Source: Candidatus Peregrinibacteria bacterium
Lineage (GTDB): Bacteria; Patescibacteriota; Gracilibacteria; UM-FILTER-43-11
Assembly: GCA_016932495.1 (NCBI GenBank)
Contig: JAFGCR010000011.1
Location: 4,973 to 68,972 of the forward strand
DNA: 64,000 nucleotides
Direction: 5' to 3'
The position numbers and the translations under genes were made by a program. Positions 19,709-64,000 of the stretch are shown here, in pieces. Under the pieces are notes generated by a model. The model saw only the letters and a list, made by a program, of their open reading frames with translations. It was not told the DNA's origin and searched no databases. The stretch's first letter is position 1, and each line of letters opens with the position of its first letter.

Positions 19709-19755
19709 AATGTTTTTAGGTTAATTAATAAATTCCTATTTAAAATTGTAATAAA

Positions 19756-19990: not shown

Positions 19991-20003
19991 GTGGTGCGAT
20001 AGT

Positions 20004-20327: not shown

Positions 20328-20341
20328 GGGTTTTTGAGGGG

Positions 20342-21103: not shown

Positions 21104-21130
21104 TTGTTTGGATATACGATGAGTATCGTT

Positions 21131-21610: not shown

Positions 21611-21632
21611 ACCCCCTTACTACACCAAAAAA

Positions 21633-30277: not shown

Positions 30278-30439
30278 ATGGTGGTTGATTAGCGTTCGGA
30301 GATTATCTTATCATATCTCTAAGAAGCCCGACAAATCATTGTCAGGTTTTTTGGACAGAGTGTCTTTTTTGAATTATTTGGGTTGGGGGCTCAGCTTCCG
30401 TTGTCGTTTAAAACATTGGAAGCCGAGCCCACGTTGGGG

Positions 30440-30922: not shown

Positions 30923-31063
30923 CTCTGACTCCTGTTACCTTGTTCAGACACATTTTCCCCCGAACCACTCGGAGAAAGAATGATTTGTCTGAGCAATTAC
31001 CCAACCCGGATAATTCAAACTTTATTTAAAAAGATCAACAACACAATTTATGTGATGATGAAC

Positions 31064-31092
31064 ATAATACAATAAAAGTGTATTTATGTCAA
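31064..31092 (-). promoter_or_regulatory. sigma-70 type promoter TTGACA-N17-TATTAT (minus strand) driving the GC-rich gene
   Basis: -35 is the reverse complement of 31087-31092; -10 is the reverse complement of 31064-31069. The leader is about 140 nt. Confidence 0.65.
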
Positions 31093-47771: not shown

Positions 47772-47859
47772 AACAAAAGCCACCTTCTTACGTTATAACT
47801 GTCGACAATGTGTCGATGACACCGTTTATGCGCCCCCTCTAAGCGCTTGTAGTCTAATT

Positions 47860-49887
47860 ATGGACAATCTTGAAAAAGAACTTTACCGGCTGTCGAAAGT
47901 GGAACCCAGTTCCAAGTTTTGCCGTCAGGCGAAAGACCGCTTGATACACAAAATCACCTTAAGCGCGAATGAAGCCTGGTTTTTAAGGTTGTTTAAAAAG
48001 GTGTTTTCGGTCAGTCCTTCTCCTTATTTTATTGAGCGTGCCCGTGTGCGTCTATTAGAACAGATCGAAGCCATGAAACGGCCGGTTTTCAGCTGGCTGC
48101 TTTTTACCAAGCGTGTGGTGGCCACTACGCTGGTCATGCTGATCGCCGTTACTACCACTTTGTTCTTTGTTGACGGCAAACAGCAGGTCAACGCGTCTGA
48201 GCCCACCTATTTAGAAGTCACGGGTGGAGAGGTCGCCGTTAAGCACGCTGATCGTCTGATTTGGGATGTGATCAATCAGCAGACCGAACTCATGGCGGGC
48301 GACTTAATACGTGTGGGTGATTCCGCGTCTGCAGTCATCCACTTTTTTGACGATTCCGAAATTCGTTTATCCGAAGACGCCTCCCTTTTATTGAGCCGGT
48401 TAGACGTCAGCCCCGGTTACGCCCGCCAGGGGATTATTGAGGTTTCTTTGCATCAGGGACGGGCATGGGTGCAGACTTTGAATGCCGATGACGGTTACGC
48501 GCGTTTTGCTCTGGTTACTCCCGACGCCATTGTTTCCACTCAGTATGCTTCGTTCGACGTTGAAACCAACCTTTTTGCCCCCACGGTCATCCGCGTATTT
48601 AAGCGCGGCGTGGAGGTAAAAGCCCTGCGTCAGGAATCCCGCGATGTGCTGGCGAGCGGTATGCTTAACACTTATCAAAAAGTCACCCTGGAGGCGGCCA
48701 CTCCCTATCAGCCCTCTGCTGATCTGTCGGTTTTTGCTCCCATTTATGAACTTACCGACGAAGACCGCGGAGAGGCATGGGCTTCCCAGAATCTGGAAGC
48801 TGACCGCGCTCATTTGGCTCAATTACGCGACCGCGAACTCATTACCCTCCGCGCGACGACGGGCTTTTTGCCGGGTCAGGTCTTGTATCCCGTAAAACGG
48901 GCCAAGGAACGCCTGCAGCTGGCTTTTGCCTTTAATGAAGAAAATCAGCAAAACACGCAGGTCGCCATGGCGAATGAACGTTTATCTGAGGCATTGGTTC
49001 TGATCGAACAAGGCCAGACCGACCCAGCCAAGCTGGCTTTAATGGAATATCAGCACCTTGTCCGCCAAATAACGGAGGCAAAGACCACCGAAGAAGTCAA
49101 AGACCAGTTATCTAACCAGGTAGTCGCCACCCATCAAAAAACCCTTGTCGCGGCCCTGCCGGGTGACGCGCGGGTGGGAATCATAAAACAAGCGCTCGAT
49201 CAAACCAAAGAACTGTTAGCGGAAAATCCTGTGGAACGTGCCCAGATCCGTTTAAAAAACAGCCTGGAAGACATGATCCATGTTCAGGAGCTGGTGGAGG
49301 CCGGCGACATAGAAAGCGCTGAAGAAACCCTTGTGGACCGCGAAATCATGGCCGTTTTATTATTAGAAGAAGCATCGGCCCTGGAGGATGAGGAGCAAAA
49401 GAAGGTTTTATTCACCCAAATCCTGGATACTCAATACGAAGAACAGCGCATTCTGAACGAATTAAACCGCCAGCTGGCCGATACAGAAGGCCCATTGGCG
49501 GCTTTGATTGAGAACGCCCACTTATCCATCAAGGAAGACATCAAACATACCGCCGCGGTGGTCCAGCCCCTCCTTCCGGACGTGGTTTTGAGCGAAGCGG
49601 TGATCCTGCCGGAAGACGAAAAGGTTATTGAGTTTGTAAACAAGGTCAATATTTACAGCACGGCCCAGGGGCAGGCTAACCAGATCAAACGCCTGCTTAC
49701 CAAGCACCCGCAATACGCCCAGAATCAGGAATTCCTGACCAAAGTCCGCGACCGTCTGGACGCGCGCTCTCAGGACCAGATCAACGTGTATCTGCTTGAA
49801 CTGAAGCGCGAAGCGACCGAGGCGAAAAGCAAAGTGGTGAAGCGGAAGATCGATCAGGCGAAGCGGGCGATGGAAGATAGGCGATAA
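47860..49887 (+). CDS. putative anti-sigma factor-like membrane protein (single TM, FecR-like beta domain, long helical C-terminal region)
   Basis: ATG at 47860 is preferred over 47668, which overlaps the sigma gene. TM segment VVATTLVMLIAVTTTLFFV. GDLIRVGDSASAVIHFFDDSEIRLSEDASLLL. Sits directly downstream of the ECF sigma. Confidence 0.6.
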   Translation: MDNLEKELYRLSKVEPSSKFCRQAKDRLIHKITLSANEAWFLRLFKKVFSVSPSPYFIERARVRLLEQIEAMKRPVFSWLLFTKRVVATTLVMLIAVTTTLFFVDGKQQVNASEPTYLEVTGGEVAVKHADRLIWDVINQQTELMAGDLIRVGDSASAVIHFFDDSEIRLSEDASLLLSRLDVSPGYARQGIIEVSLHQGRAWVQTLNADDGYARFALVTPDAIVSTQYASFDVETNLFAPTVIRVFKRGVEVKALRQESRDVLASGMLNTYQKVTLEAATPYQPSADLSVFAPIYELTDEDRGEAWASQNLEADRAHLAQLRDRELITLRATTGFLPGQVLYPVKRAKERLQLAFAFNEENQQNTQVAMANERLSEALVLIEQGQTDPAKLALMEYQHLVRQITEAKTTEEVKDQLSNQVVATHQKTLVAALPGDARVGIIKQALDQTKELLAENPVERAQIRLKNSLEDMIHVQELVEAGDIESAEETLVDREIMAVLLLEEASALEDEEQKKVLFTQILDTQYEEQRILNELNRQLADTEGPLAALIENAHLSIKEDIKHTAAVVQPLLPDVVLSEAVILPEDEKVIEFVNKVNIYSTAQGQANQIKRLLTKHPQYAQNQEFLTKVRDRLDARSQDQINVYLLELKREATEAKSKVVKRKIDQAKRAMEDRR

Positions 49888-50011: not shown

Positions 50012-50051
50012 GGAAAAGAGCGCCGACCGACGGGGAAGTCGGTGACGCTCT
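50012..50051 (-). terminator. GC-rich hairpin plus U-tract downstream of the GC-rich 342-aa gene
   Basis: GAGCG..ACCGAC (50018-50031) pairs with GTCGGT..CGCTC (50038-50050). An A-run at 50014-50017 on the plus strand gives the U-tract on the minus strand. Confidence 0.65.
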
Positions 50052-50076: not shown

Positions 50077-51105
50077 TCAGCTGAGCTGGCGCTGGGTGTT
50101 CGTGTTCGGTTTGACGAAGGTGCCGGTGAGCACCATCGCCAGGCAGCCTGCGCCGACCATGGCCAGGGCGGCCACAGGGCTGAAGCTGTAAGCGATGATG
50201 ATGGCACACACCAGGGAGCCTGCGCCGATGAGGCTCTTGCCGAGCCGGCCAGGCGTTGCCACGGTGATGTGGGCGCCCGTGCGGCGCATGTTGATGGCCG
50301 TGATGAGCTGGATGAGGGCAAAGTAGAGTCCTGCCAGCAGGGCCAGGATGAGCAGGAACGAGGTGGTGCCTGAGACACCGTGTTCCACGGTAGCTGCGGC
50401 CTGACCGGCCGATGACAGCTTGGGCTCAGTGGGGCTGAAGTAGTCCACCGAGTCATCCCGATAGGACACGATTTTGACCTCCTCGTCCTGGACGATTTGG
50501 TCTTCAGGGGCGTCGATTGCCCCGCGCGTGAGATACCGGTCCCGCGGGACGAGGGGGGATTCTTCCAGCGGGATGCCGAGGCTGCTGATCAGCCAGTTGT
50601 TGACGTCGCCGTCCGGCAGGAAGCGTCCGACCATGTTGAGGGTCACTGGCAGGATGCTGACCTTGCGCTTGCCCTTCTCAACGGTGAGATGGGCGTAGAG
50701 CAAGCACTCGAGTTTGAGCTCGTACGTGCGGATCTGCAGGCCCTTCTCCTCGAGCTCGCTGACCCGGAACACCCGCTTGACCGGGTTGTTCGCGTTGGGG
50801 TTGGCTTGCTCACAGGTCGTGAAGTTCCCCCACTGGTAGTTCTCACGGTCGAAGTCGGCAGTACCGGGTGGGAACTTCTCGGACCAGAACAGGATGCGGT
50901 GGTTTTGGCGGTCCTTGTCCGCCTCGTCTTCGTAGAACACCACCGTGCCGTTGTTGGCGTTGATCACGTTGTAGAGCGCACGGGCGTCGTACTCGGTGAT
51001 CGCGACGCCGGGGCCACTAGCCTTTTGTTCGAACGTGACCTCCTTGGCGGAGGCCGGAGAGACGATGATCAGGGTCACCGCAACGATCAGTGCGAAGCGT
51101 TTCAT
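50077..51105 (-). CDS. secreted protein with a C-terminal multi-TM anchor, encoded by a compositionally foreign GC-rich gene
   Basis: GGGAGGA SD before the ATG. Signal peptide MKRFALIVAVTLIIVSPASA|KE. About 3 C-terminal TM helices. 43/60 G+C in 50221-50280. Confidence 0.7.
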   Translation of the reverse strand: MKRFALIVAVTLIIVSPASAKEVTFEQKASGPGVAITEYDARALYNVINANNGTVVFYEDEADKDRQNHRILFWSEKFPPGTADFDRENYQWGNFTTCEQANPNANNPVKRVFRVSELEEKGLQIRTYELKLECLLYAHLTVEKGKRKVSILPVTLNMVGRFLPDGDVNNWLISSLGIPLEESPLVPRDRYLTRGAIDAPEDQIVQDEEVKIVSYRDDSVDYFSPTEPKLSSAGQAAATVEHGVSGTTSFLLILALLAGLYFALIQLITAINMRRTGAHITVATPGRLGKSLIGAGSLVCAIIIAYSFSPVAALAMVGAGCLAMVLTGTFVKPNTNTQRQLS

Positions 51106-51348
51106 GGTTTTCCTCCCTATTTCTAGTTCGTTTGAACCTTGGTTACCAAAAGTACAACTCGCCTGCGGGCGAGAAAAAGAGACGTTAAATTTATCTATTT
51201 AGCTCGCGTTGGCGAGAGTGTTTATTGCGACCAGAACTCCTTGCCTGCCAGGAGCTTTACGTCCCCTAGGGGCGCTGGGCTACACTAACAGACAGAAGGA
51301 TGGCCGCAATGAAGCTAATTGTAAAAGAACATGATTGAAAGTGAAAAT

Positions 51349-51377
51349 ATTATACAATATTTACTATAAAATGTCAA
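51349..51377 (-). promoter_or_regulatory. perfect consensus sigma-70 promoter TTGACA-N17-TATAAT (minus strand)
   Basis: -35 is the reverse complement of 51372-51377; -10 is the reverse complement of 51349-51354. The leader is about 240 nt and carries several GC hairpins. Confidence 0.7.
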
Positions 51378-51416: not shown

Positions 51417-52370
51417 TTATGTTGCGAAATTATAGGCAAGCGGCTGTGGGCGTTTGATAATAGCGCGCGCCCTTTCGCGGATGCTTTGCACACCGCCTAA
51501 TTTAAAGATTTCACCTACACCTGAGAGTATTTTTAAGCCTTTATGCTGGCGCCGAAAGCCGTTTGTAACCGATTCTACAGGGGTCAGGGCAGTTCTTGTA
51601 ATATTAGCGCCATAAGAAAAGCCAGCTAACCCGATTTCTCCTATAGTGGCCCCCACACCCCTTCCAAAGGCCTCAAAAGGCTGTGTAAAGGCCTTTCCTG
51701 GCAAGGTGGCAGGCGATATAACGTGATGCAGAGCCTGGCGGCTATCTCTGGCCATCAGAGCCTTTGGGGCATCCCATAGTGCTCTTTTGAGCCCCTTAAG
51801 GCCCTGCCAGGGCACATTTACGGGGAATTTTATACATTCCCAGCCAAAACGCGCGGCTTTGCTGATGCCAGTGGCCGGAATATTCCACATAGTCCGGAAA
51901 CCTGTCATGATATTGTCATGAAGCGCGTACATAGGCAGGCGCACAAACATGCTTTTGCCAGATTCTATAACCGGTCCGCCGGTAAGATGATAGGCGCCCA
52001 CAGGTAATCGGGCAGTTTGTTTTAACATTGTTTTTCCCGGTTCGTAATAGCTACTGGTTTTAACATAGTTTTTTACCCCTCTGGTACCCGCCTTGAGGCC
52101 CTCCCAGGGCAAAACTAACCCCGCGTAAAAGGGGGCGACTAATAATCTTGGGATCACTCCTTTTACGCTTTTGGGGCTGATCAGCCAGCGGCCTACACGC
52201 CAGTTTTTGGGAGCTTCCGCAGCCTCTGCGGCTACTGCTTCTGTTTTTTTACCCAAGCCGATTTTGCCTGCCAGGCCGCCCAGTTTTTCACTGAGTTTAT
52301 AAGTCAGGCGTTTTTCCGTTAAGAGCGGGTTGGTTTGGTAGTGCCGGTAATGTGAGGTGGTGGTATACAT
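51417..52370 (-). CDS. hypothetical basic protein
   Basis: 317-aa ORF in the minus-strand array. No motif recognised. Confidence 0.6.
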   Translation of the reverse strand: MYTTTSHYRHYQTNPLLTEKRLTYKLSEKLGGLAGKIGLGKKTEAVAAEAAEAPKNWRVGRWLISPKSVKGVIPRLLVAPFYAGLVLPWEGLKAGTRGVKNYVKTSSYYEPGKTMLKQTARLPVGAYHLTGGPVIESGKSMFVRLPMYALHDNIMTGFRTMWNIPATGISKAARFGWECIKFPVNVPWQGLKGLKRALWDAPKALMARDSRQALHHVISPATLPGKAFTQPFEAFGRGVGATIGEIGLAGFSYGANITRTALTPVESVTNGFRRQHKGLKILSGVGEIFKLGGVQSIRERARAIIKRPQPLAYNFAT

Positions 52371-52399
52371 GTGGGGTGGTTAGTGGGTGGGAACCCTCC

Positions 52400-52555
52400 A
52401 ACCTCCCTTCTCAGGGAGGCATAATCGGTGGGTTTTTTACACTCCCTTCTCAGGGAGGCATAATCGGTGGGTTTCTTACACTCCCTTCTCAGGGAGGCAT
52501 AATCGGTGGGTTTCTTACACTCCCTTCTCAGGGGGGCATAAGTGATGGGCATTAT
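52400..52555. repeat. 39-bp tandem repeat array, about 4 copies, each with a 6-bp hairpin CTCCCT-tctc-AGGGAG
   Basis: Units at about 52400-52438, 52439-52477 and 52478-52516 (the last two identical), and 52517-52555 (degenerate, overlapping the stop of the 764-aa gene). Confidence 0.9.
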
Positions 52556-54846
52556 TTTTTCGCCTTACGTTCCTCTTCTTTTTCCTGCCTTTTGCGTTCC
52601 CTTTCCGCCTCTTGTTTCAGCAACGCTCCGGTGCGGCTCCGAATGTTTTTGACGAATTTTTCTCCGTCTTCATTCAGTAAGGCATTTTTTGTTTTTTCTT
52701 CCTCTTTTTTTTCTTCCTCTTTGGGTTTACGGACCTCGGTTGTGAATTCAAAGAGTGTGAGCAGGCTTTTTTTCATTTGCTGAGCCATTTCAAAATCTTC
52801 CTGCGAGACGTAATACTGGCCGGTTGTTTTATCGACGGGTTCATACGGGGCGTTTTCATCCAGCAGGATGCCCAGTTCCACCATGATCGGCTGGAGGATC
52901 TGGGTTTCAATTTCCCTTTTTATATCCGCCAATCGGCTGTCCGAAACGCCTTTAACATATAATTCGATTAATTTTTCAAAGTCAAAAGGGGTGTCGAATT
53001 TGGAAAAATCACAGTCTTTAGGAGCCACTCCGGGGATATTTTGTGAATAATCCCGGTTAAACCCCTCTTCGCGGTCGCCGTAGGCCTTACGGCATTGTTC
53101 CAGCGCTTCCCGGAAAGGTTTTGGCATCGCTTTGCCCTGGTAGTTCAGACGGCCCTGCATGGCGGCGACAAGGAAGTCAAACCATTGAATGGCCTCCCGG
53201 TAATCCGGATTATTTTTCAATCCGTCTAATGCCTTTTTGGCCTGCTCGAGAGCATCCTCTTTAGGGGCTGAAAAGCATTTCTCCAACGCTTCCCAAATCG
53301 CCTGATTACGTTCCCGGGTCTGTTCATAAATACGATTTCCCAGCACAATGATCCTTTCATAATCACCGGCAAGGGTTATTTTTTCGTCCCTCAGCATCAT
53401 TTCGATTAATTCTTTTAAAGAAGTGGCCTTTTTGCCTTCCGGAAACTCATGCAGGAGCACTTCCAGGATGGAATTAATTTTTTCTTCCACCTCTGTTTTA
53501 AGTGAGTCAAAATTTACTTTAGCATCCCGCGCCTTTTTGCGTCCCAGGGGCGTGTTAAACAGAAAATCAGCTATTTTAGACGGCACTTCCGGCATTATGT
53601 TCAGCACCAGTTCTACCGCGTCGTCTGCCTCGTCTAGCGGCCGTCCCTCATTGATCGCGTCCGTGATTTCTTCCAAAGCCCATTCCAGCATTTCGGCTTC
53701 GTCAGCGCCTTCTCCTTTTAAACCTACTAATGCCTCCTGGATTTTTGGCAGGGCAGCCTGAATTATCTGAATGTCTTCTCTTACTGTTGGCGCAAACGCA
53801 TTCCCTTGAGACGCTGTCCGCAGATGCCCGAGGGCCTCCCCGATGTTACTGCCTAAATACTGGAGGGCAATTTTTTGGGTTAAAACATCCGCATTGACTC
53901 CGAACGGGCGCAAAAAGGCTTTACCTCCTTCGGTTTGAGCCCAGGCAAAAAGCCGTTTTCCGCTCAGGCCTTTTAAGGCAAACAGCCGTTCTAACGCGGT
54001 TTTAAATTCGGGAGTGCGCAAACGAAACAGCTGTTCAACGCCTTTCGCGTGTTTTTCGTATAATTTTCGTTCTTTTTCTTCACCTTTCTGCTTTTTCTGG
54101 ATTTCCTGCGTCATAGGGACAAGCACCGCATCCAGAAATTCTTTGAGGTGCGGATTTTGTTCACGCATACTGTGGAAAACCGACAGCATTTCTTTGAAAA
54201 TGGCTTTTAAATTTTGGCGGTTTTTAGGGTTTTTCATACCCTTAAACCATTTGAACATCTCTGTAGCGAGGGCTGGGAAATGCATTTTCCCCCGTTTTTT
54301 GTCGAGTAACTGGTGACATTCTTTCATGTGCTTCCCGTTTAACTCCAGTACTTTCATAACCGCCTTGGACAGAGGGCCATCCGGCTCCTTCATCTCATTG
54401 TAATGAGGCAGGGTTTCACAATCTTCAATCCCATGGTCCTGAAAATATTTTTTTGTATGGGCGGTGTTCCCCAGGCTAAAATGGCTCATTAAAGCCAGTG
54501 CCAGGCTGAAATCGGCCAGCGCTTTTTGGAGCTGTTCTGATTGCCGTGGGCTGTCGACTTCCCCCGCGAAAACTTCATTCCAAAACGACGTCATAAACTG
54601 ATCAAAGCCTTCTACTTTCTGCTCCTGTTTTTTGCTTAACTGATCGCCTTTGCCACCCCCCAGAACAAATATTGCCCCCTGTAGCGGTTTGCCATAGGTT
54701 TCTTTTAATTCACTCCAAAAACGCCCTAAAATGGCTTTAATTTTTCCGCGCCGTGCTTCCTGGGCTTCTTTTTGGGTGCGGGCCAATTCCCGATTAGCCG
54801 GGTTTAAATTGATTCGCGGAGTGTTGGGTTGATTGGGTGCGTTCAT
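52552..54846 (-). CDS. hypothetical large alpha-helical protein with a Lys/Glu-rich C-terminus
   Basis: 764-aa uninterrupted ORF. No catalytic or nucleotide-binding motif found by eye. Confidence 0.7.
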   Translation of the reverse strand: MNAPNQPNTPRINLNPANRELARTQKEAQEARRGKIKAILGRFWSELKETYGKPLQGAIFVLGGGKGDQLSKKQEQKVEGFDQFMTSFWNEVFAGEVDSPRQSEQLQKALADFSLALALMSHFSLGNTAHTKKYFQDHGIEDCETLPHYNEMKEPDGPLSKAVMKVLELNGKHMKECHQLLDKKRGKMHFPALATEMFKWFKGMKNPKNRQNLKAIFKEMLSVFHSMREQNPHLKEFLDAVLVPMTQEIQKKQKGEEKERKLYEKHAKGVEQLFRLRTPEFKTALERLFALKGLSGKRLFAWAQTEGGKAFLRPFGVNADVLTQKIALQYLGSNIGEALGHLRTASQGNAFAPTVREDIQIIQAALPKIQEALVGLKGEGADEAEMLEWALEEITDAINEGRPLDEADDAVELVLNIMPEVPSKIADFLFNTPLGRKKARDAKVNFDSLKTEVEEKINSILEVLLHEFPEGKKATSLKELIEMMLRDEKITLAGDYERIIVLGNRIYEQTRERNQAIWEALEKCFSAPKEDALEQAKKALDGLKNNPDYREAIQWFDFLVAAMQGRLNYQGKAMPKPFREALEQCRKAYGDREEGFNRDYSQNIPGVAPKDCDFSKFDTPFDFEKLIELYVKGVSDSRLADIKREIETQILQPIMVELGILLDENAPYEPVDKTTGQYYVSQEDFEMAQQMKKSLLTLFEFTTEVRKPKEEEKKEEEKTKNALLNEDGEKFVKNIRSRTGALLKQEAERERKRQEKEEERKAKK

Positions 54847-54936
54847 GGTGGTTTTAAATTAGATAAATGTGATAGTTAATAGGTGTATGGCGGGGGGACT
54901 TGCGTCCCCCGCGCCGTTCATGTTGTGAACTCTGGG

Positions 54937-55716
54937 TCAGGCCATGCGGATCATGGTGTCGCGGGCCACTTCGGCGAGCGGCTCCAGGGAGCTCTCGCGC
55001 AGGTCCATGGCCCTCTGGATCTCGTTGTACATCGTGTCGATGAGGGCGTGGTCGTCCGGATGGTCCTCGGTGAGGCCATCGCGGAGGTGCTCCATGGCGA
55101 CCATGAAGGCCGGAGCGTCGAACATCCCGTGCTTTTGGAGGCTGGGATCGTTCTGGAAGCCTTCGTACAGGTCGCCGAAGCAATTGGCAATGATCTTGGC
55201 CTTGGGGTTGCCCCGGAAGGCTTTGATCGTGCCCATGGACCGGATGGCCCCGCCACTGAGACGGGCGGCTCCGGTGATGATGCCGGCACTGCCGCGGCCG
55301 AGCGCCTTGGTCCCCTTGCCGATCGAAGAGAACCAGCTGCGGTTGAAGAAAAACATGGTGATGAGCAGGAGCGCCATAGCCGACCAGATGCCAGAGCTGA
55401 CCAGGGTGATCAGTGCGACGATGAGCGAGTAGCCCACTACGACACGGATGATCCATCCGAGAATGGGGACCATGCTGGTGATCGAGATAATGCCCCAGAT
55501 CTTGCGCCCCCACATAAAGAGGGCGTAGGCGAAGATGATCCACTTGATGAAGGCGAGGTCCCCGTCGAGCTTGATGTTCCACGGGAGGTGGTTCGTCACG
55601 AGCAGGACCTTGGCGGCCAGCACTTCGGGGAGGTTGATGAGAAACATGATGATGTTCACCAGGGTCTCACCAACTCCGTAGATCGCGTTGACCTTCTCTT
55701 TGAATTCTTCCCACAT
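54937..55716 (-). CDS. polytopic membrane protein with a soluble C-terminal domain, encoded by a compositionally foreign GC-rich gene
   Basis: AAGGAAG SD before the ATG. About 4 TM helices. 24 of the first 32 codons end in G/C, with all Ile as ATC and all Asn as AAC. 37/60 G+C in 55021-55080, against 24/60 in 56101-56160. Confidence 0.7.
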   Translation of the reverse strand: MWEEFKEKVNAIYGVGETLVNIIMFLINLPEVLAAKVLLVTNHLPWNIKLDGDLAFIKWIIFAYALFMWGRKIWGIISITSMVPILGWIIRVVVGYSLIVALITLVSSGIWSAMALLLITMFFFNRSWFSSIGKGTKALGRGSAGIITGAARLSGGAIRSMGTIKAFRGNPKAKIIANCFGDLYEGFQNDPSLQKHGMFDAPAFMVAMEHLRDGLTEDHPDDHALIDTMYNEIQRAMDLRESSLEPLAEVARDTMIRMA

Positions 55717-55874
55717 GTTTCACTTCCTTTCGTATTCCTAAGCCCGCAGGCTTGTTTTCAGGTTCACAACAATGAGTTCGACCGCCGCTCAAGAGAGCAA
55801 AATTACTCCTTGGGCGACAGACCGCTCATTGCTGTTTTAGCGATTTTTAAAAGAGCATTGTTACAGAGATAGTT

Positions 55875-55903
55875 ATTTTATAATATTATTTATAATTTGT
55901 CAA
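55875..55903 (-). promoter_or_regulatory. sigma-70 type promoter TTGACA-N17-TAAAAT (minus strand)
   Basis: -35 is the reverse complement of 55898-55903; -10 is the reverse complement of 55875-55880. The leader is about 155 nt. Confidence 0.65.
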
Positions 55904-55935
55904 TAGCTAATTACCTCAATTTATTGTTTCAAAAA

Positions 55936-55974
55936 ACAGCCATTACCGTATGGTTTTCTGGCTGTTTTGTTTTA
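55936..55974. terminator. bidirectional terminator-like hairpin after the 1747-aa gene
   Basis: ACAGCC (55936-55941) pairs with GGCTGT (55960-55965). It is flanked by an A-run upstream and TTTTGTTTT downstream. Confidence 0.55.
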
Positions 55975-56033
55975 ATATAATAAGCTTAATTTTTAAGGGT
56001 GTCAATACCCTTAAGGCAACCTTTTTGTACCGT

Positions 56034-59000
56034 TTATTTTGTTGGTTTGGCCAGTTTTTCTAATCGGTCGTTCAGGGCTTTATTCAGCTCTTTAAACACA
56101 ATATCCAATCCTGTTTTAGCTCCGCTTAAGATAGACATTACTACTGACTCCGGAAGATTCATCACATCGTCTCTAATGAATTTTTCTGATAAATATGGGA
56201 TCCATTTATTTTGTGGTAATTTTACTCCTTTTATTTTAGGGACATTTTCCCCCCGGAAATAAGCCGTCATGTTTTCTGCTAAATACCGCCGATAAGCCAG
56301 TTCGACCGCGTCCGCATTAAAATATTCTTTTATCCCTGCTATTACACTTACGTCTTTGGCAGCCTGCGCGATTACATTATGGTACTCGTCAAACTGTTTA
56401 GGAATATTACTGTTTTTGCCGAATTTACGCACCAGCTCCGCGCGCATGCGGGTGCCGCTTCGAGACCAGTGCTGTTCTTCCATGAATTTCTCCTGATAAT
56501 TTTTTTGGATCGCTTCAAAGAATTTAATCCTCAGATTGTCATTTTTGCCATAATCCATTAAAGGCTCTCCTTCGGCCGCAGCCTGGGCATGGTCCAGCAG
56601 TTTTTTCAGGTCCCAGCCGCCGGTATCTTTAGCCTGCCATAAATCAAAGGCTTTCATGAATTTTTTGGCCTCGTGGCTATCGAGCGAAGAAACATATTTA
56701 GGAGGAATGACCTCATCAATGCCAAATACAATGGTGTGCTTATAGTCTTCCAGGTCCCCATACCGCCAGTTACGGTTTTTGCGCATGTAGTACTCATAGT
56801 TTAAACGCACTTTCTTTTTTATTTCTTTCCCTGTGGCCTGATCGACATAGGTATATTCTCTTGTAGCCCGATGCTGTTCATGAATGGGAGTAGGAACCCT
56901 TAAAAACAGCAGGTAACCATTTTGCGTGTTGCGGAAAGAGCCATATCGTTGGATCATCGGTTCTACGTGGGCGCGGATTCTGTCTTTATCCCGGCTTTGG
57001 ATGGCCTGAGTGAATTCATCATTGGGATCCAGATAATCCACATAGGCTGTATGATTCGCGTCTTGTGTGTGGAAGAATTCCACTAAATTTTTCACCGCAT
57101 CGCGGTAGGCTTCATCCCTTTGGTCCGTCAATGGCCTAATTGAATCTTTGCACACCCCCATAAAGTTCACATAGCCTTCCGGTACCCTAAAATCAAAACG
57201 CTGCATCGGTTCTGTCATTAAATTTTTACGAGCCAGCAAACCTCCTTTGTTCTGCCAGTCGTACCAATCTTCTTCGTATTTTCCAAAAATTTCATATCCA
57301 TTGGTAATAAAATTTAGCTTCCAGGATTCTTCTTTGTCTTTTAGCGCTTCAGCAAGCGCTTTCTGGTCAATGTTATAAGGGCCGGTTTCATCGGGGAACA
57401 TATTGTGCACAACCCGTATTTCATTTCGGCTCCAGCGCTGAAAATTTGATTCTACCTTAGTTAAAGCGGTCGCCAGTGTATCAGTGGCGCGGTCGCCTAA
57501 TTCTAAAGTGGCGACAAAAGGCAGTTTTACGCCTGTAGTGATGATCTGCCAGGTATTATTGGCCATGCGTTTAAGCCGCAAGGCGGTTTCACCTTCTTTC
57601 CACCATACCGAGATCTCCCGGCCGGTTTCAGCAGTAAATTCCCAGCCTTTCTGGCCCCATTCTTTCATGGTGCGCCAGGCTTCCGGGCCGTAATCTTCCG
57701 AGAATTTCCGTATAGTTTCGTCGGTAAAATATTTGACTTTGCCTTTCAGGTGGAGCCAGCTTGGCAGAGCTTTGTTTTTGTATTCCACCATTTCGTTGTA
57801 CAGCCAGCTGGGTACTCCCAGTAAGCCTTCATGTTCGCGGTTGGCCTGTTCCCATTCAGCGGCAGTGCTCAATACTTCGCTGGCTTCTTTATAATTCCAT
57901 TTGTAGCCGCCGTCCTGCAGATCTTTGGCCTCATCAGGCGCCAGGTAAAGCACTTTTCCTTTTTCGGCCGCTTTTTTAAATCCTTCCGCGGTGAAGTGGT
58001 AGTACAATTCGTCACGGCCGGCTTTAAGCAGCTGTTCACGATCGGTTATTGTCCCACGAGTGGCACGTTTGCCGATCATTAACAGTTGCTTTTCAATCAC
58101 ATCCACAAACTTGGCGCCAACGGCTTCTTTGTTGGTCTCGTCGGGCATGATCTCATCCAGCTCCCGCGGTTTCAAAAGCCCGGAACGGGTAAGGGAAGCA
58201 TAATGGCTGTAACCACGATTTTTGGCTTTGTCCTGAGCGCTCCAGCCGTATTCACCCCGGCCGTCGTACCACTTTATAATATCTTCGATTTTTTTGTCTT
58301 TCAAAGTGTCCAAAGCCCGGTGGCCAGCCTGGTCATCATATTCAATTCCGCTGTTTTTAGCCTCTTTGTGCAGCCAGGAGCCCCGCGCGGTTTCCGCAGG
58401 ACTGTCGATTCCCAGGAAGCTGAGGGCGGGCTTGCCAGTTACGTTTTCATAAATCATCCCAATACCCAAAGCCGCCGCCGTTCCGCGGATTAACTTTCCC
58501 GGCCACCCTTGGCCGGAGACTCCGCGGGAGATGACGAGATAGGCCATAAACCCGTAAATAAAACGCACTTCCGGCCGTACGCCGGAGCCAAAAATGTTCT
58601 CAAACACATGACCGCCCACCTTATGCACCCGTTCCATTAATGTATTTCCTTTGTCGTACATGCCCTCTTCGTAGTCGATTTTGTTTTTCAGGTCTTTTTG
58701 GGCTTGCTCAGTACGGCGCTGGAATTCGCGGATAAATTCCCTTAACACCTCCCGCGCGTTCTCGTGTTCAGGGTGTTTTGGGTCTTGTAAGGCCTCCACA
58801 AAAGCCTGATTACCGGGCGTGGCGCTTAAAATACGGGTCAGCACTGTGACCGCTGCGCTTTCACCTCCCTTCTTATTAGCCAGTTTTTCATCTAAATCTT
58901 TTTCCCATATGCCTACCTGAGTTTCGGGGTTGGACCAGTAATTGCCTTTAAAATAGCGGTAAAACGCGCCTTGCCATACCACTTGGTTGGCCGCGCACAC

Positions 59001-61277
59001 GCGTTCAAATTCCGACATTCCTTCTAAGGCCTGGGCTTCCACGTTTTTAAAGTAGTCTTTTAATTTATCATTCGGGACGCCTACTATTTCCGCCAGCTTA
59101 TTTATTCGTATTTCATTCCGGCGGTTTACAAAATTGTTACTGATGTCATTCAGGATTTCTGCGGCTAACACACTATCTCCTGCTTCTATTTTTTTGACTA
59201 TTGTTTCCCATTTGGCTTTATCTTCCGGCGACATTCCGGTTGTGTCCCGGCCGGTGATCATTTCGTACAGTACGTTCCCTTTAAGAGGCCGTTTAAGTTT
59301 TTCAAGATATCCTGTTTTGGCGGTGGATCTGCTGGCATACGTTAACATTTCTGTCAGGCGTCCGATGCGCGTCTGCATAACGGCTTTTTTGTCAGCGTCT
59401 TTTTCTGTTGTAAGATTTGTTCGTAATTCGCCGATATATTTTTGTGTCAGCTCTCTGCCACTCAGCGTGTCCATGTCCATATACAGCTGGTTCAGTTTTT
59501 CCAGATCCTTTTTAATGCCTGTTTTTTCTTCGTCGTTATAATAATAAGAAACCTTCGGCAGCATATTGATCTCCGCGATCCGGCTGGAGACAAGGGCCGC
59601 TTTGTCGATATCCACCTCTTTTAAACTGGCGCCATCCATTCCCACATATTGCTTCAGGGTTTTGTTCAGCAAAACAGCTTTTTCATGCATGCCTTTCAAA
59701 CGCCCTGATTGCTCTTCGTAGAATTCATCATCCGGCGTAAAGCCTTCATCGAGAGCCTGGCGATAAACCACACGCAAAACAATTAAGTCCACCTCGATTT
59801 GACTGTGAAGGCTCCGGATCTGCTGTTCATAAGAAGCTAATTCAAATTCTTTCAGTACCTCGTGTTCAGGCAGGCCGTTTGCATCTAAAAATTCCTTTTT
59901 TCCGCTGTCCGGATTGAATTCTTTGCCCTGAAAAAGTTTGTCGTGCTTATAGGCTCCTTTCTTTTCCTGAATTTTGTAGTTGGGGCCGATTTTAATGCCC
60001 TCTAGTTTTGCGAATTCATCTACTTTGTCCACTCCTGCCAGCATCGCAGTAGTCAGCAGGTAAGCGCGGGTACGAGGGTCGCGGGGGAGCTGTTTGCCAT
60101 ATTTTTGTTTGATTTGGTCCATGACCATCAGGTACATGTCCATGGCCATTTTTACGTTTTCCGGCGCGCGTGACTGGCCGTCCTCGATCAGTTCTTCGTA
60201 ATATACCAATCCGCTTTCGGCAGTCACACCAAGTCGTCCTTCCAGGATTTTTTTGGTCTGATTCAAAGCTTCCAGTTCAGCCTCTGCATTTTTAAGGGCA
60301 ACCGGATTGTCTGTTCGCGTGGCTGCTTCCTTAGCGATTTCCTGTTTTTTGATTTCAGCATCATTCAGTTCGATTGATTTGCGGACGCCCATGTCATCAA
60401 TAATCTTCATTTTGGGGCTCGCCTCCATCGCCTTCAGGTAGATGTAGGCTTCCCGCACAAAGGCCAGATGTTTATCGATAAATTCGATTTGGTCTTTTTC
60501 AACCAGATGTATGTAGGCCTTGGCATTAGCAATTTCTGGTGCTGTTCCGCTGATATTTTCTACAACACTTTTACCTTTTTCGGCGTTGTTTTTGGCAATA
60601 GCGCCGGCATTTGTCAGTTGTTCCAGATAACTCTTGGAATCAGCCAAATATCCTTCCAATTGTGTTTTATTTTTTATTTTGCCGGTAGGAACGGTATTGA
60701 CGAGATTCCGATATTTAGCGGAATCAAGGGTATCCCCTTCAGCGGTGCCCATTTCGATCAAGGGAACATTTTCCAATTCCGTTTTTTCATTAGCTCTCAA
60801 AACTTCATTAATCTTATCCTGCGCGCTGCCCACCTGTCTTCGGTTCAAACCTGCGTAGCTGAATTTTTCGGCCTTAATTCCTCTGGCTGTATTGGCCAAC
60901 TCTTTTCGCATACTCTCCAGGCGGGCGTTCATACTGTCCAGCGCAGTGGTCTTTTCTTTAGTCCCCGCATATTCGGTTGCCAGTTTTTTCAGGTTGGGAT
61001 GGTTTTTATCAATGCCGGTCGGGCTGGTGGGATTGTTCAGTTTCTGCAGGCGGATGTATTCCAGCAGGATCCGGAAATCATCGCTTTTACCCTCAAAAGC
61101 CTTATATTCAGGTTTATTGGGGTAATGGCTGATAACATCCTGAATAAGCTCCCCCGTATCTTTGCTTGTTTCGATGGTTTCTTTTGCCTTTTTTAATTCA
61201 GGGTTTTTGTACACATACAATAACCGGTTTTCTTTAGCGCTCCCTGCGTCTGAGTTCTCAAGGCGGGAAAGGGTCAT
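56034..61277 (-). CDS. giant hypothetical protein (1747 aa)
   Basis: Single uninterrupted ORF, mostly helical. One internal hydrophobic hairpin (FIYGFMAYLVISRG...AAALGIGMIY). No Walker A or HExxH motif found by eye. Confidence 0.8.
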   Translation of the reverse strand: MTLSRLENSDAGSAKENRLLYVYKNPELKKAKETIETSKDTGELIQDVISHYPNKPEYKAFEGKSDDFRILLEYIRLQKLNNPTSPTGIDKNHPNLKKLATEYAGTKEKTTALDSMNARLESMRKELANTARGIKAEKFSYAGLNRRQVGSAQDKINEVLRANEKTELENVPLIEMGTAEGDTLDSAKYRNLVNTVPTGKIKNKTQLEGYLADSKSYLEQLTNAGAIAKNNAEKGKSVVENISGTAPEIANAKAYIHLVEKDQIEFIDKHLAFVREAYIYLKAMEASPKMKIIDDMGVRKSIELNDAEIKKQEIAKEAATRTDNPVALKNAEAELEALNQTKKILEGRLGVTAESGLVYYEELIEDGQSRAPENVKMAMDMYLMVMDQIKQKYGKQLPRDPRTRAYLLTTAMLAGVDKVDEFAKLEGIKIGPNYKIQEKKGAYKHDKLFQGKEFNPDSGKKEFLDANGLPEHEVLKEFELASYEQQIRSLHSQIEVDLIVLRVVYRQALDEGFTPDDEFYEEQSGRLKGMHEKAVLLNKTLKQYVGMDGASLKEVDIDKAALVSSRIAEINMLPKVSYYYNDEEKTGIKKDLEKLNQLYMDMDTLSGRELTQKYIGELRTNLTTEKDADKKAVMQTRIGRLTEMLTYASRSTAKTGYLEKLKRPLKGNVLYEMITGRDTTGMSPEDKAKWETIVKKIEAGDSVLAAEILNDISNNFVNRRNEIRINKLAEIVGVPNDKLKDYFKNVEAQALEGMSEFERVCAANQVVWQGAFYRYFKGNYWSNPETQVGIWEKDLDEKLANKKGGESAAVTVLTRILSATPGNQAFVEALQDPKHPEHENAREVLREFIREFQRRTEQAQKDLKNKIDYEEGMYDKGNTLMERVHKVGGHVFENIFGSGVRPEVRFIYGFMAYLVISRGVSGQGWPGKLIRGTAAALGIGMIYENVTGKPALSFLGIDSPAETARGSWLHKEAKNSGIEYDDQAGHRALDTLKDKKIEDIIKWYDGRGEYGWSAQDKAKNRGYSHYASLTRSGLLKPRELDEIMPDETNKEAVGAKFVDVIEKQLLMIGKRATRGTITDREQLLKAGRDELYYHFTAEGFKKAAEKGKVLYLAPDEAKDLQDGGYKWNYKEASEVLSTAAEWEQANREHEGLLGVPSWLYNEMVEYKNKALPSWLHLKGKVKYFTDETIRKFSEDYGPEAWRTMKEWGQKGWEFTAETGREISVWWKEGETALRLKRMANNTWQIITTGVKLPFVATLELGDRATDTLATALTKVESNFQRWSRNEIRVVHNMFPDETGPYNIDQKALAEALKDKEESWKLNFITNGYEIFGKYEEDWYDWQNKGGLLARKNLMTEPMQRFDFRVPEGYVNFMGVCKDSIRPLTDQRDEAYRDAVKNLVEFFHTQDANHTAYVDYLDPNDEFTQAIQSRDKDRIRAHVEPMIQRYGSFRNTQNGYLLFLRVPTPIHEQHRATREYTYVDQATGKEIKKKVRLNYEYYMRKNRNWRYGDLEDYKHTIVFGIDEVIPPKYVSSLDSHEAKKFMKAFDLWQAKDTGGWDLKKLLDHAQAAAEGEPLMDYGKNDNLRIKFFEAIQKNYQEKFMEEQHWSRSGTRMRAELVRKFGKNSNIPKQFDEYHNVIAQAAKDVSVIAGIKEYFNADAVELAYRRYLAENMTAYFRGENVPKIKGVKLPQNKWIPYLSEKFIRDDVMNLPESVVMSILSGAKTGLDIVFKELNKALNDRLEKLAKPTK

Positions 61278-61407
61278 TTGGGTTTGTTTTTGTTTTAATA
61301 AATTTATCTATATATTATACCAAAAAAAGCATATTTTAGCTAGTAAATATGTTTGACCGATTTAAGAGAATATGGCGTTTGCTTTTTAGTCTATTTTTAT
61401 CTCCTAT

Positions 61408-62379
61408 TTACCTGTTGTTCCATTTTTTCTTTAACCACTTACTGCCTTTATCGAGCCATTTTTTGCCCTTTTTCTTGAGCCGGTGTACTTGGTATAAGCC
61501 TTCCATCGCCAGACTTTCTTCCACAGTCACGCCCCATTGGAAATGGTGTTTTTCACTCCATCTCCAGCCCCCGAGCCAGAAGAACCCTTCAGCAATCAGA
61601 TAGGGCTTTGCTTCCGGCCAGTTTGCCACATCCACGGCTAAGCCGACCTCATGCAAAGAGTGCCCAGGAGGGGCTGTTGGCGGGAGTTTTGGGTTTTCCT
61701 GCTTGGCGATAAATAAGTCATTTTGCTGCATGTTCACGCTAAAAGCGCGGCTGATTTTAATATGGCCTTTCCCGTCAGCTACCATTTTTTTATCGGCCTG
61801 AATAAATGCTTTGGCGGCCGGCTCTTTTAGCTTATAGAGCTCATCGATATTCATTTCATATTTATCATATTTATATCGCCCGCATTCCTCAGGTAATTCT
61901 TCCAAATCCTCATCCACTAATTTGTCGCCGGCGGTTTTAACCAATTCAGGACTTAGATAATTGCCGGTGGCTGAATCTTTTTTATACCCCTTTTTGTCCA
62001 GAGCCTCCGCTAATTGTTTGACTGCCTCCGATTCCTTCGCATTATGTATTGTCATCAATTCATCTAAATCGATCTGCTCGATCAGCTTATCTACCTCTTC
62101 CTTAATTTCTGATTGCCGCTGTTTGTCGATTTCATATGAGGCAACAGCGGCCAGACCTAATATCAAACTGCCGATAAGAAACCGGCGGCGGCTGATCAGG
62201 ATTTTTTTAGCCTCCCTCTCAGCCTTTTCCGGGTCTTGTCGGCCTGCCTGCACGGGTGCCTCCCCCTGGGCACGTGCTTCTTCGCCTACCTCTTCCATGG
62301 TCGGAAAGCGGTCTGGCGCCTGAAAGCCCGGTGCGTTGGGGTCGTTGTTGTTTCGCGGGGGGTTAGCCATTAGCGGCAA
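61408..62379 (-). CDS. membrane-anchored peptidase M15 (VanY / D-Ala-D-Ala carboxypeptidase-like) cell-wall hydrolase
   Basis: Disordered N-terminus. TM segment FLIGSLILGLAAVASY. PGHSLHEVGLAVDV (SxHxxGxAxD type) and WSEKHHFQWG (ExxH type). Confidence 0.7.
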   Translation of the reverse strand: MPLMANPPRNNNDPNAPGFQAPDRFPTMEEVGEEARAQGEAPVQAGRQDPEKAEREAKKILISRRRFLIGSLILGLAAVASYEIDKQRQSEIKEEVDKLIEQIDLDELMTIHNAKESEAVKQLAEALDKKGYKKDSATGNYLSPELVKTAGDKLVDEDLEELPEECGRYKYDKYEMNIDELYKLKEPAAKAFIQADKKMVADGKGHIKISRAFSVNMQQNDLFIAKQENPKLPPTAPPGHSLHEVGLAVDVANWPEAKPYLIAEGFFWLGGWRWSEKHHFQWGVTVEESLAMEGLYQVHRLKKKGKKWLDKGSKWLKKKWNNR

Positions 62380-62686
62380 AATTAAGGGTGAATTGGGCGA
62401 ATTGATTCAGTGAGTCGGTGATATTCTCCAATAATTGGGGATTCTCTGTTAAATAAGTCTCGAGCACATTGTCCATCGGAATCCCCATTTCCTGACTCAT
62501 TTTTAGTGTGTCTTCCAGGTCTTCCGCGCTCATGTATTCGCTGATCTCCTCCATCATGATGTCATTGGCCTGCAGGGTCAGGTTTGCCTTCACTGAGTTG
62601 GTTTGCAGTTCTTTAGGAAGTTCGTTGTACAGGCTCTCAATAAAGTCTTCCAGGCTCAATTGTGTGATGTCATTATTTTGAGGCAT
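62363..62686 (-). CDS. hypothetical small acidic protein
   Basis: 107 aa, Glu/Asp-rich. Its 3' end overlaps the start of the M15 peptidase gene by 17 nt, which suggests translational coupling. Confidence 0.5.
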   Translation of the reverse strand: MPQNNDITQLSLEDFIESLYNELPKELQTNSVKANLTLQANDIMMEEISEYMSAEDLEDTLKMSQEMGIPMDNVLETYLTENPQLLENITDSLNQFAQFTLNFAANG

Positions 62687-62724
62687 GTATTATTTTATAT
62701 ATAAATTTATATTTTGTCAATATT

Positions 62725-64000
62725 TTAGGCTGTTGCCGGCATCAATCCTTTTTTACGCTGGCGGCGATGCCATAAGCCTTTAGTCAATTTCCATCCGCTC
62801 CAGCCCATAATGGTCAATGAAGTGGCGGGCCAGCCCCCCAAAAAGATGCAGGCGGTTACAAAGGCGCTGGCTTTGGCAGTTCCTTTCGGGTGTTTTTTTA
62901 CAAAATTATACAATTTTCCCAATCCAAATCTCCCCCCTTTTCCAAATATCTTAGTTAAACCCCAGGCGCCCGCGGCCAAACCACGCCCTGCCCGCCGGGT
63001 GAGATAGTTTTTACGATGTTCTTTTAGAAACGCTTTCATGTCGTCCGGTAAATCCACAGCCACATGTTCCCGGGCTTCAGCTAAGCTCAGGTTAAAATCA
63101 TCGATTTGTTTAAATACTTCATGCATCCGTTCTTCTTTTGACAGCTCTTCCGTCTCTGCCCGTATGCCCTTTTTTACATTATCCACCAAATACATCCGGT
63201 AGGCATGGATTAAATTCTTTTTAACAGCAAACAGCTGTTTGGCGGCCCGATAATTAACCCCCATTTTAAGAAAACGCCTTTCATCCATCAGGCCTTGCAT
63301 GTGGCTTAACAGGGCGATTATAGCCCTTTTCAGTTCAGCGGGCCGTTCCTTTTCGCTGAACTGGTCGGCCAGCGTATTGATCCATTTTTTGGTAACTGCA
63401 GTGTCTTTTGTTTTTAATCTGATCACCTGTGCCATTACCTTCCGCGCCTTTTCCGGCAGATGGGTGAGCGGGCCTTTTTCGCTGGTCAGAAACGTCAGCA
63501 CTTCTTTTTTGTCCGCCCCTCTTAATTTATGCCGTTTTTCTTCCGGCGGATGATGTGCTTTCAGGGTTTTTTCGGTTTTTTGCAGGATGATTTCAGTTCT
63601 TTGCACGGGATCCATATCCTCGTTTTCCATGAAAAATCCATGAATATGCATCACCATGGTCTCGGCAGAGATTTTCCGGCTTCTTTTCAGCCGGTTCCGC
63701 GTGCCGTGGGTGATCATGTTCAGTTCTTTGTTGAGCGTGCCTGTTTTTTGTTCGATGGCGTTTAATTTTCCACGCAATTCCTGCTGGCCGCCTTCGCCGG
63801 TGCGCAATTCCATCAGGCGGTCGATTTGTTCTTTGGCCGGGCTGGCACCCTTTGGCAATCCTTTAATATCCTCCTGCAGACTGCGGATGTCTTCGTTTAC
63901 ATATTGGAGCTGTTGGGTGATTTTCTTTTTTTCTGCCTCGCTTTCTTCGAGCTGGACTTTGCGTTTATGCACCTCTTCACGGGTCTTTTTTTCTGTCCAT
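62725..64000 (-). CDS. hypothetical coiled-coil protein with a C-terminal TM segment; 5' end runs off the window
   Basis: The frame remains open from the GTG at 63972 to base 63997. C-terminal hydrophobic stretch AFVTACIFLGGWPATSLTIMGW. Confidence 0.65.
   Translation of the reverse strand, partial: WTEKKTREEVHKRKVQLEESEAEKKKITQQLQYVNEDIRSLQEDIKGLPKGASPAKEQIDRLMELRTGEGGQQELRGKLNAIEQKTGTLNKELNMITHGTRNRLKRSRKISAETMVMHIHGFFMENEDMDPVQRTEIILQKTEKTLKAHHPPEEKRHKLRGADKKEVLTFLTSEKGPLTHLPEKARKVMAQVIRLKTKDTAVTKKWINTLADQFSEKERPAELKRAIIALLSHMQGLMDERRFLKMGVNYRAAKQLFAVKKNLIHAYRMYLVDNVKKGIRAETEELSKEERMHEVFKQIDDFNLSLAEAREHVAVDLPDDMKAFLKEHRKNYLTRRAGRGLAAGAWGLTKIFGKGGRFGLGKLYNFVKKHPKGTAKASAFVTACIFLGGWPATSLTIMGWSGWKLTKGLWHRRQRKKGLMPATA

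Follow-up and report, generated by a model that had tools for sequence, protein, structure and literature searches.

The 64,000-nucleotide stretch of DNA analyzed here (the window; contig JAFGCR010000011.1, positions 4,973 to 68,972) comes from a Candidatus Peregrinibacteria bacterium. At its far end lies a co-directional array of genes for orphan and very large proteins, together with one membrane-anchored peptidase of the M15 family. We find this array to be, as far as its sequence can tell, a real conserved unit beyond what chance would give, because the order of its genes is kept in relatives at 21–35% identity. Its conserved core consists of a giant protein, a 259-aa protein, a 764-aa protein, a 317-aa protein, and a secreted, anchored protein of about 340 aa. 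In our best reading, to which we assign a probability of roughly 0.4, the array is a lineage-specific envelope-associated module organized in several separately promoted units. A preliminary description of the window had likened the same genes to a machine that crosses the cell wall, which is a guess.

Conservation of the array in relatives

The array was compared with contigs from related genomes (here numbered L002 onward). One ENA scaffold of about 37% GC, L002, carries every array gene in the same order, with 46–79% protein identity. The 3′ end of its giant gene is interrupted by an IS30-family transposase gene (12249–13226, minus strand; HTH_38 and rve domains), which leaves a 1669-aa open reading frame (ORF) and a 61-aa C-terminal remnant. 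The core order giant–259–764–317–(~340) is kept at 21–35% identity in L003, L004, L006, L008–L010, L047, L048, L053, and L054, and is thus retained across more than eight independent contigs. The preliminary description had asked whether these genes keep their order in relatives, and those of the core do. There the order reads as the giant protein (or its C-terminus), a ~260-aa membrane protein, a ~700-aa helical protein, a ~320-aa basic protein, and a signal-peptide protein of ~340–490 aa; some relatives have a YbjQ gene placed between those for the helical and the basic protein.

Homologs of the giant protein are found in L003, L006, L047, L048, and L053, and members of the 259-aa family stand at the same position in L003, L004, L006, L010, L047, L053, and L054. 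The position of the 342-aa gene is taken by signal-peptide genes with high GC at the third codon position (GC3) in L003, L006, L008, L049, L053, and L054, and the 342-aa protein itself is 61% identical in L002. The giant gene of L048 (3876–8709) appears as two ORFs of 855 and 749 aa whose junction has a tail that looks out of frame; this is probably a frameshift (an assembly error or a pseudogene) and not a true split.

Two side observations concern these contigs. Independent metagenome assemblies repeatedly end within the giant gene, at the 259-family gene, or shortly before the latter (the starts of L049–L052, and L008, L005, L003, L006, and L007); these recurrent breaks could stem from variability among strains at this spot, or from coverage or GC. 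In two distant relatives, L006 (6651–7022 and 8889–9176) and L053 (12608–12973), genes of PF05635 (23S rRNA intervening-sequence protein, Avd-like) border the gene for the high-GC3 secreted protein, and no reverse transcriptase was seen on either contig.

Layout of the array

All of the ORFs previously listed for the array are present, on the minus strand. The first gene enters from beyond the window, which holds its 3′ two-thirds (62725–64000), and encodes an acidic, coiled-coil protein that has a hydrophobic hairpin at its C-terminus. The earlier figure of more than 415 aa was right as a lower bound: on an identical 13.3-kb Logan contig (L001) that reaches 1.8 kb past the window, the full length is 669 aa, with a hydrophobic segment at residues 619–646 and 46% identity to a 731-aa ortholog in L002. 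L001 also reveals a further co-directional gene upstream, for an acidic protein of at least 353 aa with a proline-rich linker. Next come the genes for a 107-aa acidic protein (62363–62686; isoelectric point (pI) 4.05, no signal peptide), the 323-aa M15 peptidase (61408–62379), the 1747-aa giant protein (56034–61277), and the 259-aa polytopic membrane protein (54937–55716). The array continues with the genes for a 764-aa all-alpha protein with a K/E-rich tail and no transmembrane segment (52552–54846), a 317-aa basic protein of pI 10.4 (51417–52370), and the 342-aa signal-peptide, membrane-anchored protein (50077–51105). No paralogy was found among the array proteins.

The genes had been described as separated by short gaps or overlapping. 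An overlap does exist, but it is more likely 8 than 17 nt, and the gaps are not uniformly short (38, 130, 317, 90, 181, and 311 nt); the two that exceed 300 nt hold promoters and leaders. The 259-aa ORF is taken as the real gene because L002 keeps it at 79% identity but has only fragments of the antisense 329-aa ORF that the Logan gene caller chose in its place (54883–55872, plus strand); the latter was rejected. The 39-nt repeat array noted earlier is also real, with 3.6 copies and 98% matches in the spacer between the 764- and 317-aa genes (52403–52541, minus strand). Each unit contains a CUCCCU-GAGA-AGGGAG hairpin (GNRA-type loop, Shine–Dalgarno-like arm; z −5.0). The repeats, which are not present in L002, could act in the processing or stability of the mRNA, or they could be a small mobile repeat.

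Predicted transcription units

Promoters and terminators were predicted from sequence, with a sigma-70-type scan of a 14-kb region, and are not mapped transcripts. The four best promoter matches (11–12 of 12 positions) are all on the minus strand and all in spacers: one before the 107-aa gene, two before the 259-aa gene, and one before the 342-aa gene. The first of these (TTGACA-17-TAAAAT, 62692–62720, 11/12 matches) is kept in L002 (5302–5343). The 107-aa and M15 genes would have a leaderless mRNA, since this promoter ends 6 nt before the ATG in the window (6–7 nt when L002 is included). An extended −10 element, TGGTATAAT (61314–61322, minus strand), lies in the spacer between the M15 and giant genes, a spacer nearly identical in L002, where the element is conserved too; it probably serves the giant gene as promoter.

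Intrinsic terminators are predicted after the giant gene (55931–55967, minus strand; a hairpin followed by U6, ΔG −15.8 kcal/mol, z −5.4) and after the 342-aa gene (50023–50042, minus strand; ΔG −26.1 kcal/mol, z −4.6). No promoter or terminator was detected by the scan among the 259-, 764-, and 317-aa genes. The preliminary description had presented the genes as a co-directional array. Because several promoters, at least four of them near consensus and at least five promoter-like sites in all, occur together with two internal or terminal intrinsic terminators, the array is predicted not to be a single operon and to fall into separate units: one ending with the 669-aa gene, the 107-aa and M15 pair, the giant gene alone, the 259-, 764-, and 317-aa genes together, and the 342-aa gene.

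Two conserved leaders with a common design

The 259-aa gene is preceded by a TTGACA-17-TAAAAT promoter (55903–55875) and a leader (together 55717–55903, minus strand) with the box ATGCTCTTTTAAAAAT at 55858–55843 and a 30-bp hairpin at 55835–55766. The 342-aa gene has a perfect consensus promoter, TTGACA-17-TATAAT (51377–51349), and a leader of about 240 nt (together 51106–51377, minus strand) with the box ATGTTCTTTTACAATT at 51332–51317 and a hairpin at 51311–51223. Common to both leaders is the box ATGYTCTTTTAMAAWT, exactly 17 nt past the −10 element and followed by a long imperfect hairpin.

Both leaders are conserved above any nearby coding sequence. For example, the 259-aa leader is 82–90% identical among the window, L002, and L054, compared with 72–79% for the coding sequence that follows, and nhmmer found it in L003 as well (E = 3.6e-11). 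The 342-aa leader was matched weakly by nhmmer, at the right place, in L053, L004, and L006. The counterparts lie at 13326–13519 and 17300–17528 in L002, 654–845 and 5048–5318 in L054, 1162–1321 in L003, and 11077–11224 in L053. The 259-aa hairpin has 30 pairs, 97.5% paired in four sequences with 4 compensatory pairs, compared with 48% at most in slid controls; the 342-aa hairpin has 6 compensatory pairs in five sequences. This covariation, in few sequences, is suggestive, and the leaders are candidates for a new cis-regulatory RNA. Searches of Rfam gave no match at the gathering threshold.

The common design of the leaders is the best evidence we have that the 259- and 342-aa genes may be co-regulated, and a box common to paralogous leaders suggests a trans-acting factor. 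Structured, conserved leaders also suggest that the products are abundant, co-regulated envelope proteins. The 5′ untranslated regions of abundant envelope mRNAs such as ompA, with their stabilizer hairpins, are similar in combining strong promoters, long structured conserved leaders, and codon bias; they differ in that the array hairpin begins at about +45 and not at the 5′ end, and the array leaders have no Rfam counterpart. Outside the array, the leader region (31024–31092, minus strand) of a gene for a 160-aa secreted helical protein has an 11/12 promoter together with a box of similar sequence, TTGATCTTTTTAAAT; these features hint at a regulon that extends past the array.

A conserved codon signature in the GC-rich genes

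The GC excess of the 259- and 342-aa genes is confined to the third codon position. Their GC3 is 0.87 and 0.85, respectively, compared with about 0.50 in neighboring genes, and GC at the first and second codon positions (GC1 and GC2) is normal. Most of the excess is C: C3 is 0.55–0.57, compared with 0.30 in 20 other genes, and ATC, AAC, GAC, and TTC account for 94%, 96%, 89%, and 86% of their respective codon choices. The 160-aa gene mentioned above (30440–30922, minus strand) is a third high-GC3 gene of the window. A 198-aa ORF with a TTG start listed over it (30408–31004) was set aside as a wrong-frame ORF, with a GC1 of 0.80.

The same third-position spike (GC3 of 0.8–0.9) is present in the equivalent genes of every relative examined (L002, L003, L006, L008, L010, L049, L053, and L054), whatever the background GC and even at 21–25% protein identity. 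It is also seen at 16122–16772 in L011 and at 15004–15606 in L014. The preliminary description had taken two GC-rich genes embedded in the array for foreign ones. An excess at the third position only, shared by the relatives' equivalents, speaks for native genes, and we rejected horizontal acquisition. Regional GC-biased gene conversion, or horizontal transfer, was likewise rejected as the source of the GC, as the flanks are not GC-rich and the leaders of the two genes are at 0.44–0.46 GC. Codon-level selection in highly expressed genes would be the simplest cause. A local excess of GC is commonly read as horizontal transfer; here that reading is wrong, which calls for caution.

Properties of the encoded proteins

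Topology was judged by a simple hydropathy scan. Three products, the M15 peptidase, the 259-aa protein, and the 342-aa protein, are clearly membrane or secreted by this measure, and the 669- and 317-aa proteins each have a borderline single segment, so that three to five products bear out the membrane components proposed earlier. The 259-aa protein has three to four N-terminal transmembrane segments and a soluble C-terminal domain. In the 342-aa protein, a signal peptide is followed by an external domain of about 215 aa and then by two to three C-terminal transmembrane segments. The scan picked up no export signal in the giant, 764-, 353-, or 107-aa protein. A membrane anchor in the giant protein is doubtful because its central hydrophobic stretch is weak, with a maximum Kyte–Doolittle 19-mer score of 1.07. 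Since the large proteins have neither a signal peptide nor a convincing transmembrane segment, they would most simply be cytoplasmic, rather than crossing or decorating the wall as the preliminary description had supposed.

In scans of nine or ten array proteins against Pfam, NCBIfam, PHROGs, and PADLOC, the M15 peptidase gave the sole family match, and the matches of the other proteins in PHROGs were all non-significant. Sequence and profile searches of the PDB with the giant (both halves), 764-, and 317-aa families returned nothing significant. Apart from the peptidase, the array proteins thus appear to fit no known family or system; the array of orphans is as real as first described, and no ordinary known family was found for the large proteins by remote homology. 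Relatives are few. The giant protein has one full homolog among 5.8 billion clusters, and a search with the giant and a C-terminal profile gave one full homolog and one fragment. With the 764-aa protein as query, an exhaustive HMMER search of 1.84 billion representatives turned up only 16 relatives. A scan of GTDB genomes with the 317-aa family gave no match, and a scan of JGI metagenomes gave no additional contig.

Structure prediction with a Foldseek search, which had been proposed as a check, was informative for one of the two proteins modeled. The AlphaFold2 model of the 764-aa protein is all-alpha and fairly confident (pLDDT, the predicted local distance difference test, 78.1), with no Foldseek match at E ≤ 0.001 in the PDB or BFVD (best E 0.32 and 0.019, respectively; TM-score about 0.1). 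Its weak best matches are helical bundles of the talin and vinculin type (E ≥ 0.3, not significant). The model of the 317-aa protein is of low confidence.

The peptidase and its small acidic partner

The enzyme of the array appears to be a divergent, membrane-anchored member of the M15 (VanY-like) family with predicted peptidoglycan activity, much as the preliminary description had it. Its build is that of VanY: a cytoplasmic tail at the N-terminus is followed by a transmembrane segment (about residues 59–86) and then by an external catalytic domain. The zinc-ligand motif SxHxxGxAxD is intact (S241-L-H243-E-V-G-L-A-V-D250), aligns to Ply500, and is kept in L002. Also intact is the second motif, ExxH (E276-K-H-H279), in which the E is catalytic and the H is the third zinc ligand, and an upstream substrate motif (S210-R211-...-Q-Q-N) aligns to YRSTAEQN of PDB entry 2vo9. 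Profile searches gave E = 1.4e-4 and 22.1 bits against Pfam VanY, under the 25-bit gathering cut-off; E = 5.3e-9 against the endolysin family PHROG 2649; and E = 0.039 against NCBIfam vanXY. A weak alignment to the L-Ala-D-Glu peptidase Ply500 (2vo9, E = 0.049) has the motifs in register.

The array enzyme therefore has the R...Q, SxHxxGxAxD, and ExxH motifs of both the VanY/M15B D,D-carboxypeptidases and the phage L-alanyl-D-glutamate peptidases such as Ply500. However, it differs from these enzymes in carrying an insert of about 90 aa that separates the transmembrane segment from the domain, in its sub-threshold Pfam score, and in its setting, as its gene overlaps that of the 107-aa acidic orphan and has no van or lysis-cassette context. 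The likely start of the M15 gene is the ATG at 62370, which gives an 8-nt ATGGCTAA overlap with the 107-aa gene; the overlap is 17 nt only with a TTG start, and it is also 8 nt in L002. The 107-aa gene is probably translationally coupled to the peptidase gene. The small protein is 78% identical in L002, with no family match in Pfam, NCBIfam, PHROGs, or PADLOC and no WXG motif.

Chromosomal setting

The 317-aa protein is identical to the NCBI entry "hypothetical protein JW752_01870" of Candidatus Peregrinibacteria bacterium. The nearest matches of GuaA in GTDB representatives are to metagenome-assembled genomes of Patescibacteria (87%), Gracilibacteria (62%), and Peregrinibacteria (59%). The remaining window is ordinary chromosome, with genes for acetyl-CoA synthetase, dnaN, mfd, PBP1, prepilin peptidase, RNase J, GAPDH, cysS, ftsW, murG, and guaA. 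The array converges with conserved chromosomal neighbors, the genes for an extracytoplasmic function (ECF) sigma factor and a FecR/DUF5667 anti-sigma protein (47217–49887, plus strand), and does so in L002, L049, L053, and L054 as well. These genes are adjoined by guaA in L053 and L054, and by GT4, murG, and ftsW in L049. Because both the core order and the sigma/DUF5667 neighborhood are kept in relatives at 21–35% identity, the locus is ancestral and vertically inherited within one lineage of Candidatus Peregrinibacteria (Patescibacteria, or Candidate Phyla Radiation (CPR)), and neither an island nor a prophage. Elsewhere in this envelope-rich genome, at 8122–9222 (plus strand) of the window, a single protein carries both S-layer-homology domains and a sortase domain, which is an unusual fusion.

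Discussion

Peregrinibacteria and other CPR bacteria are uncultured and probably host-dependent, with more than half of their genes unannotated, and conserved clusters of orphan genes are common in CPR genomes. For the array described here, we favor a lineage-specific envelope-associated module in several separately promoted units. In such a module, the 259- and 342-aa products would be abundant envelope proteins, co-regulated by their common promoter, box, and hairpin leader and made from codons that end in C to an extreme degree. The giant, 764-, and 317-aa proteins would serve at the cytoplasmic face, close to the membrane, as a scaffold or assembly factor for what the membrane proteins build. 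In the lineage of the window, the external M15 domain may trim the stem peptides of nearby peptidoglycan; the overlapping, leaderless 107-aa and M15 pair and the acidic, coiled-coil 353+- and 669-aa proteins would be an add-on, found in the window and L002 only. Envelope architecture, cell–cell contact, and a division-related function are candidate roles.

Several points weigh against this reading. The separate promoters weaken the case for all of the genes acting together, and the M15 peptidase and the small acidic protein do not extend to L048, the sole distant relative with upstream sequence, where neither has a match and unrelated small genes are found instead. The topology calls come from a simple hydropathy scan, and the model of the 317-aa protein is unreliable (pLDDT 46.8). 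High expression is judged from codon bias and promoters only and is uncalibrated, as the window holds no ribosomal-protein genes. Finally, L011, the closest relative by its flanks (84–94% identity from 35.5 to 49.9 kb; GuaA 87%), has different orphan genes after DUF5667 (15949–21764), although the types of protein that they encode follow the array's order: first a high-GC3 secreted anchored protein, next a basic one of about 290 aa, then a helical one, and finally membrane proteins. L014 (14890–18264) resembles L011, and further orphan genes of this kind occupy the same post-DUF5667 site in L012 (8058–9547) and L013 (15146–15650). The ~290-aa basic proteins at this site begin MFH..TTL in closer and more distant Patescibacteria. 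Homology of the L011 and L014 genes to the array families was not established (hhalign probabilities of 0.1–25%); the sole pointers to it are an N-terminal [FL]-x-[GT]-E-x-R motif and the common position. Loci of the L011 type have either diverged past recognition or replaced the array locus.

It is possible, though we would bet against it, that there is no system here and that unrelated neighbors are held together by genome inertia, with the M15 enzyme a housekeeping VanY/LdcB-like carboxypeptidase for wall maturation. Patescibacterial genomes are rich in hypothetical genes, and such a view is in keeping with at least five separate promoters and two terminators, with M15 and 107-aa genes that stand outside the conserved core, and with a VanY-like architecture typical of housekeeping enzymes. 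Genome inertia sits poorly with a five-gene core order kept at 21–35% identity, with 259- and 342-aa genes alike in promoter, box, and hairpin design and in codon bias, and with the stretch from the 259- to the 317-aa gene in which the scan found neither promoter nor terminator. A division or shape scaffold is distinctly unlikely. It would be cytoplasmic and membrane-tethered, an EzrA-type helical-bundle analog linked to ftsW–murG, with the M15 enzyme remodeling the wall. The large proteins are indeed helical, K/E-rich, and free of export signals, the weak best Foldseek matches are talin- and vinculin-type bundles, and the locus is near ftsW and murG in both the window and L049. However, those matches are not significant (E ≥ 0.3, TM-score about 0.1), the guaA, GT4, sigma, and anti-sigma genes lie between the array and ftsW–murG, and the search for motifs that bind FtsZ, FtsA, or PBPs came up empty.

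An envelope-spanning secretion or host-contact machine, in which the peptidase opens the wall, the small acidic protein is a chaperone, and the giant proteins are surface or effector proteins, seems quite improbable to us. A membrane-anchored peptidoglycan peptidase coupled to a small acidic protein, along with membrane components, would suit it, and gram-positive type IV and type VII secretion system clusters are similarly co-directional and likewise include a wall hydrolase anchored in the membrane, a polytopic membrane protein, and a small acidic helical protein of about 100 aa. Unlike those clusters, the array has multiple promoters, and no homology to VirB6/VirB8 or EsaA/EssB was found in it (nothing VirB6/VirB8-like matched the 259-aa protein). 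None of the libraries scanned yielded an ATPase, secretin, pilin, VirB4/VirD4, EssC, or WXG motif, in agreement with the preliminary description, nor did any P-loop or ATPase family appear in the array proteins, including those of the two upstream genes from L001 and L002. The giant proteins have no signal peptides, and the peptidase is outside the conserved core. Peribacteria have been reported to encode large extracellular proteins, possibly for attachment (PMC4736985). That precedent is not directly transferable, as the large array proteins are without signal peptides. Far less credible still, and largely refuted, is a prophage remnant, mobile element, or acquired island with an M15 endolysin, a giant tape-measure-like protein, and foreign GC-rich genes. 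The match of the peptidase to a PHROG endolysin family, the two GC-rich segments, and an L011 without the array at this site might suggest one. Yet the array lacks genes for an integrase, capsid, portal, or terminase, searches of IMG/VR and GenBank phages gave no relatives, and there are no PADLOC matches; the array holds the same chromosomal position in distant relatives, and its GC excess is at codon position 3 only and shared with the relatives' equivalents.

An analogy can also be drawn to the terminal organelle of Mycoplasma (HMW1/2/3 and P65), where very large helical proteins are likewise found in the cytoplasm of a host-dependent bacterium with a reduced genome; the acidic, proline-rich linker of the upstream 353-aa protein is a further likeness. 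It differs in that no sequence similarity was detected, the array has no adhesin homolog, and Peregrinibacteria have peptidoglycan.

The envelope-associated module that we favor could also be taken further, in a bolder form that we think somewhat unlikely. The array would then be an undescribed, Peregrinibacteria-specific envelope apparatus in which the 259- and 342-aa membrane proteins are held by giant cytoplasmic scaffolds. The genes for these two proteins and at least one more secreted-protein gene (30440–30922) would form one regulon, defined by a new, conserved leader RNA (an AU-rich box at +10 and a long hairpin) and by an extreme, clade-wide use of C-ending codons. Of all that the array shows, the conserved third-position spike and the conserved leaders are what is unusual and open to direct testing.

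What had been a list of orphans can now be described as a defined module that is chromosomally fixed and conserved, with predicted transcription units. For a lineage of this kind, the module offers handles on envelope biology: one enzyme of predictable activity, two probably highly expressed envelope proteins, and a candidate cis-regulatory RNA that would join them.

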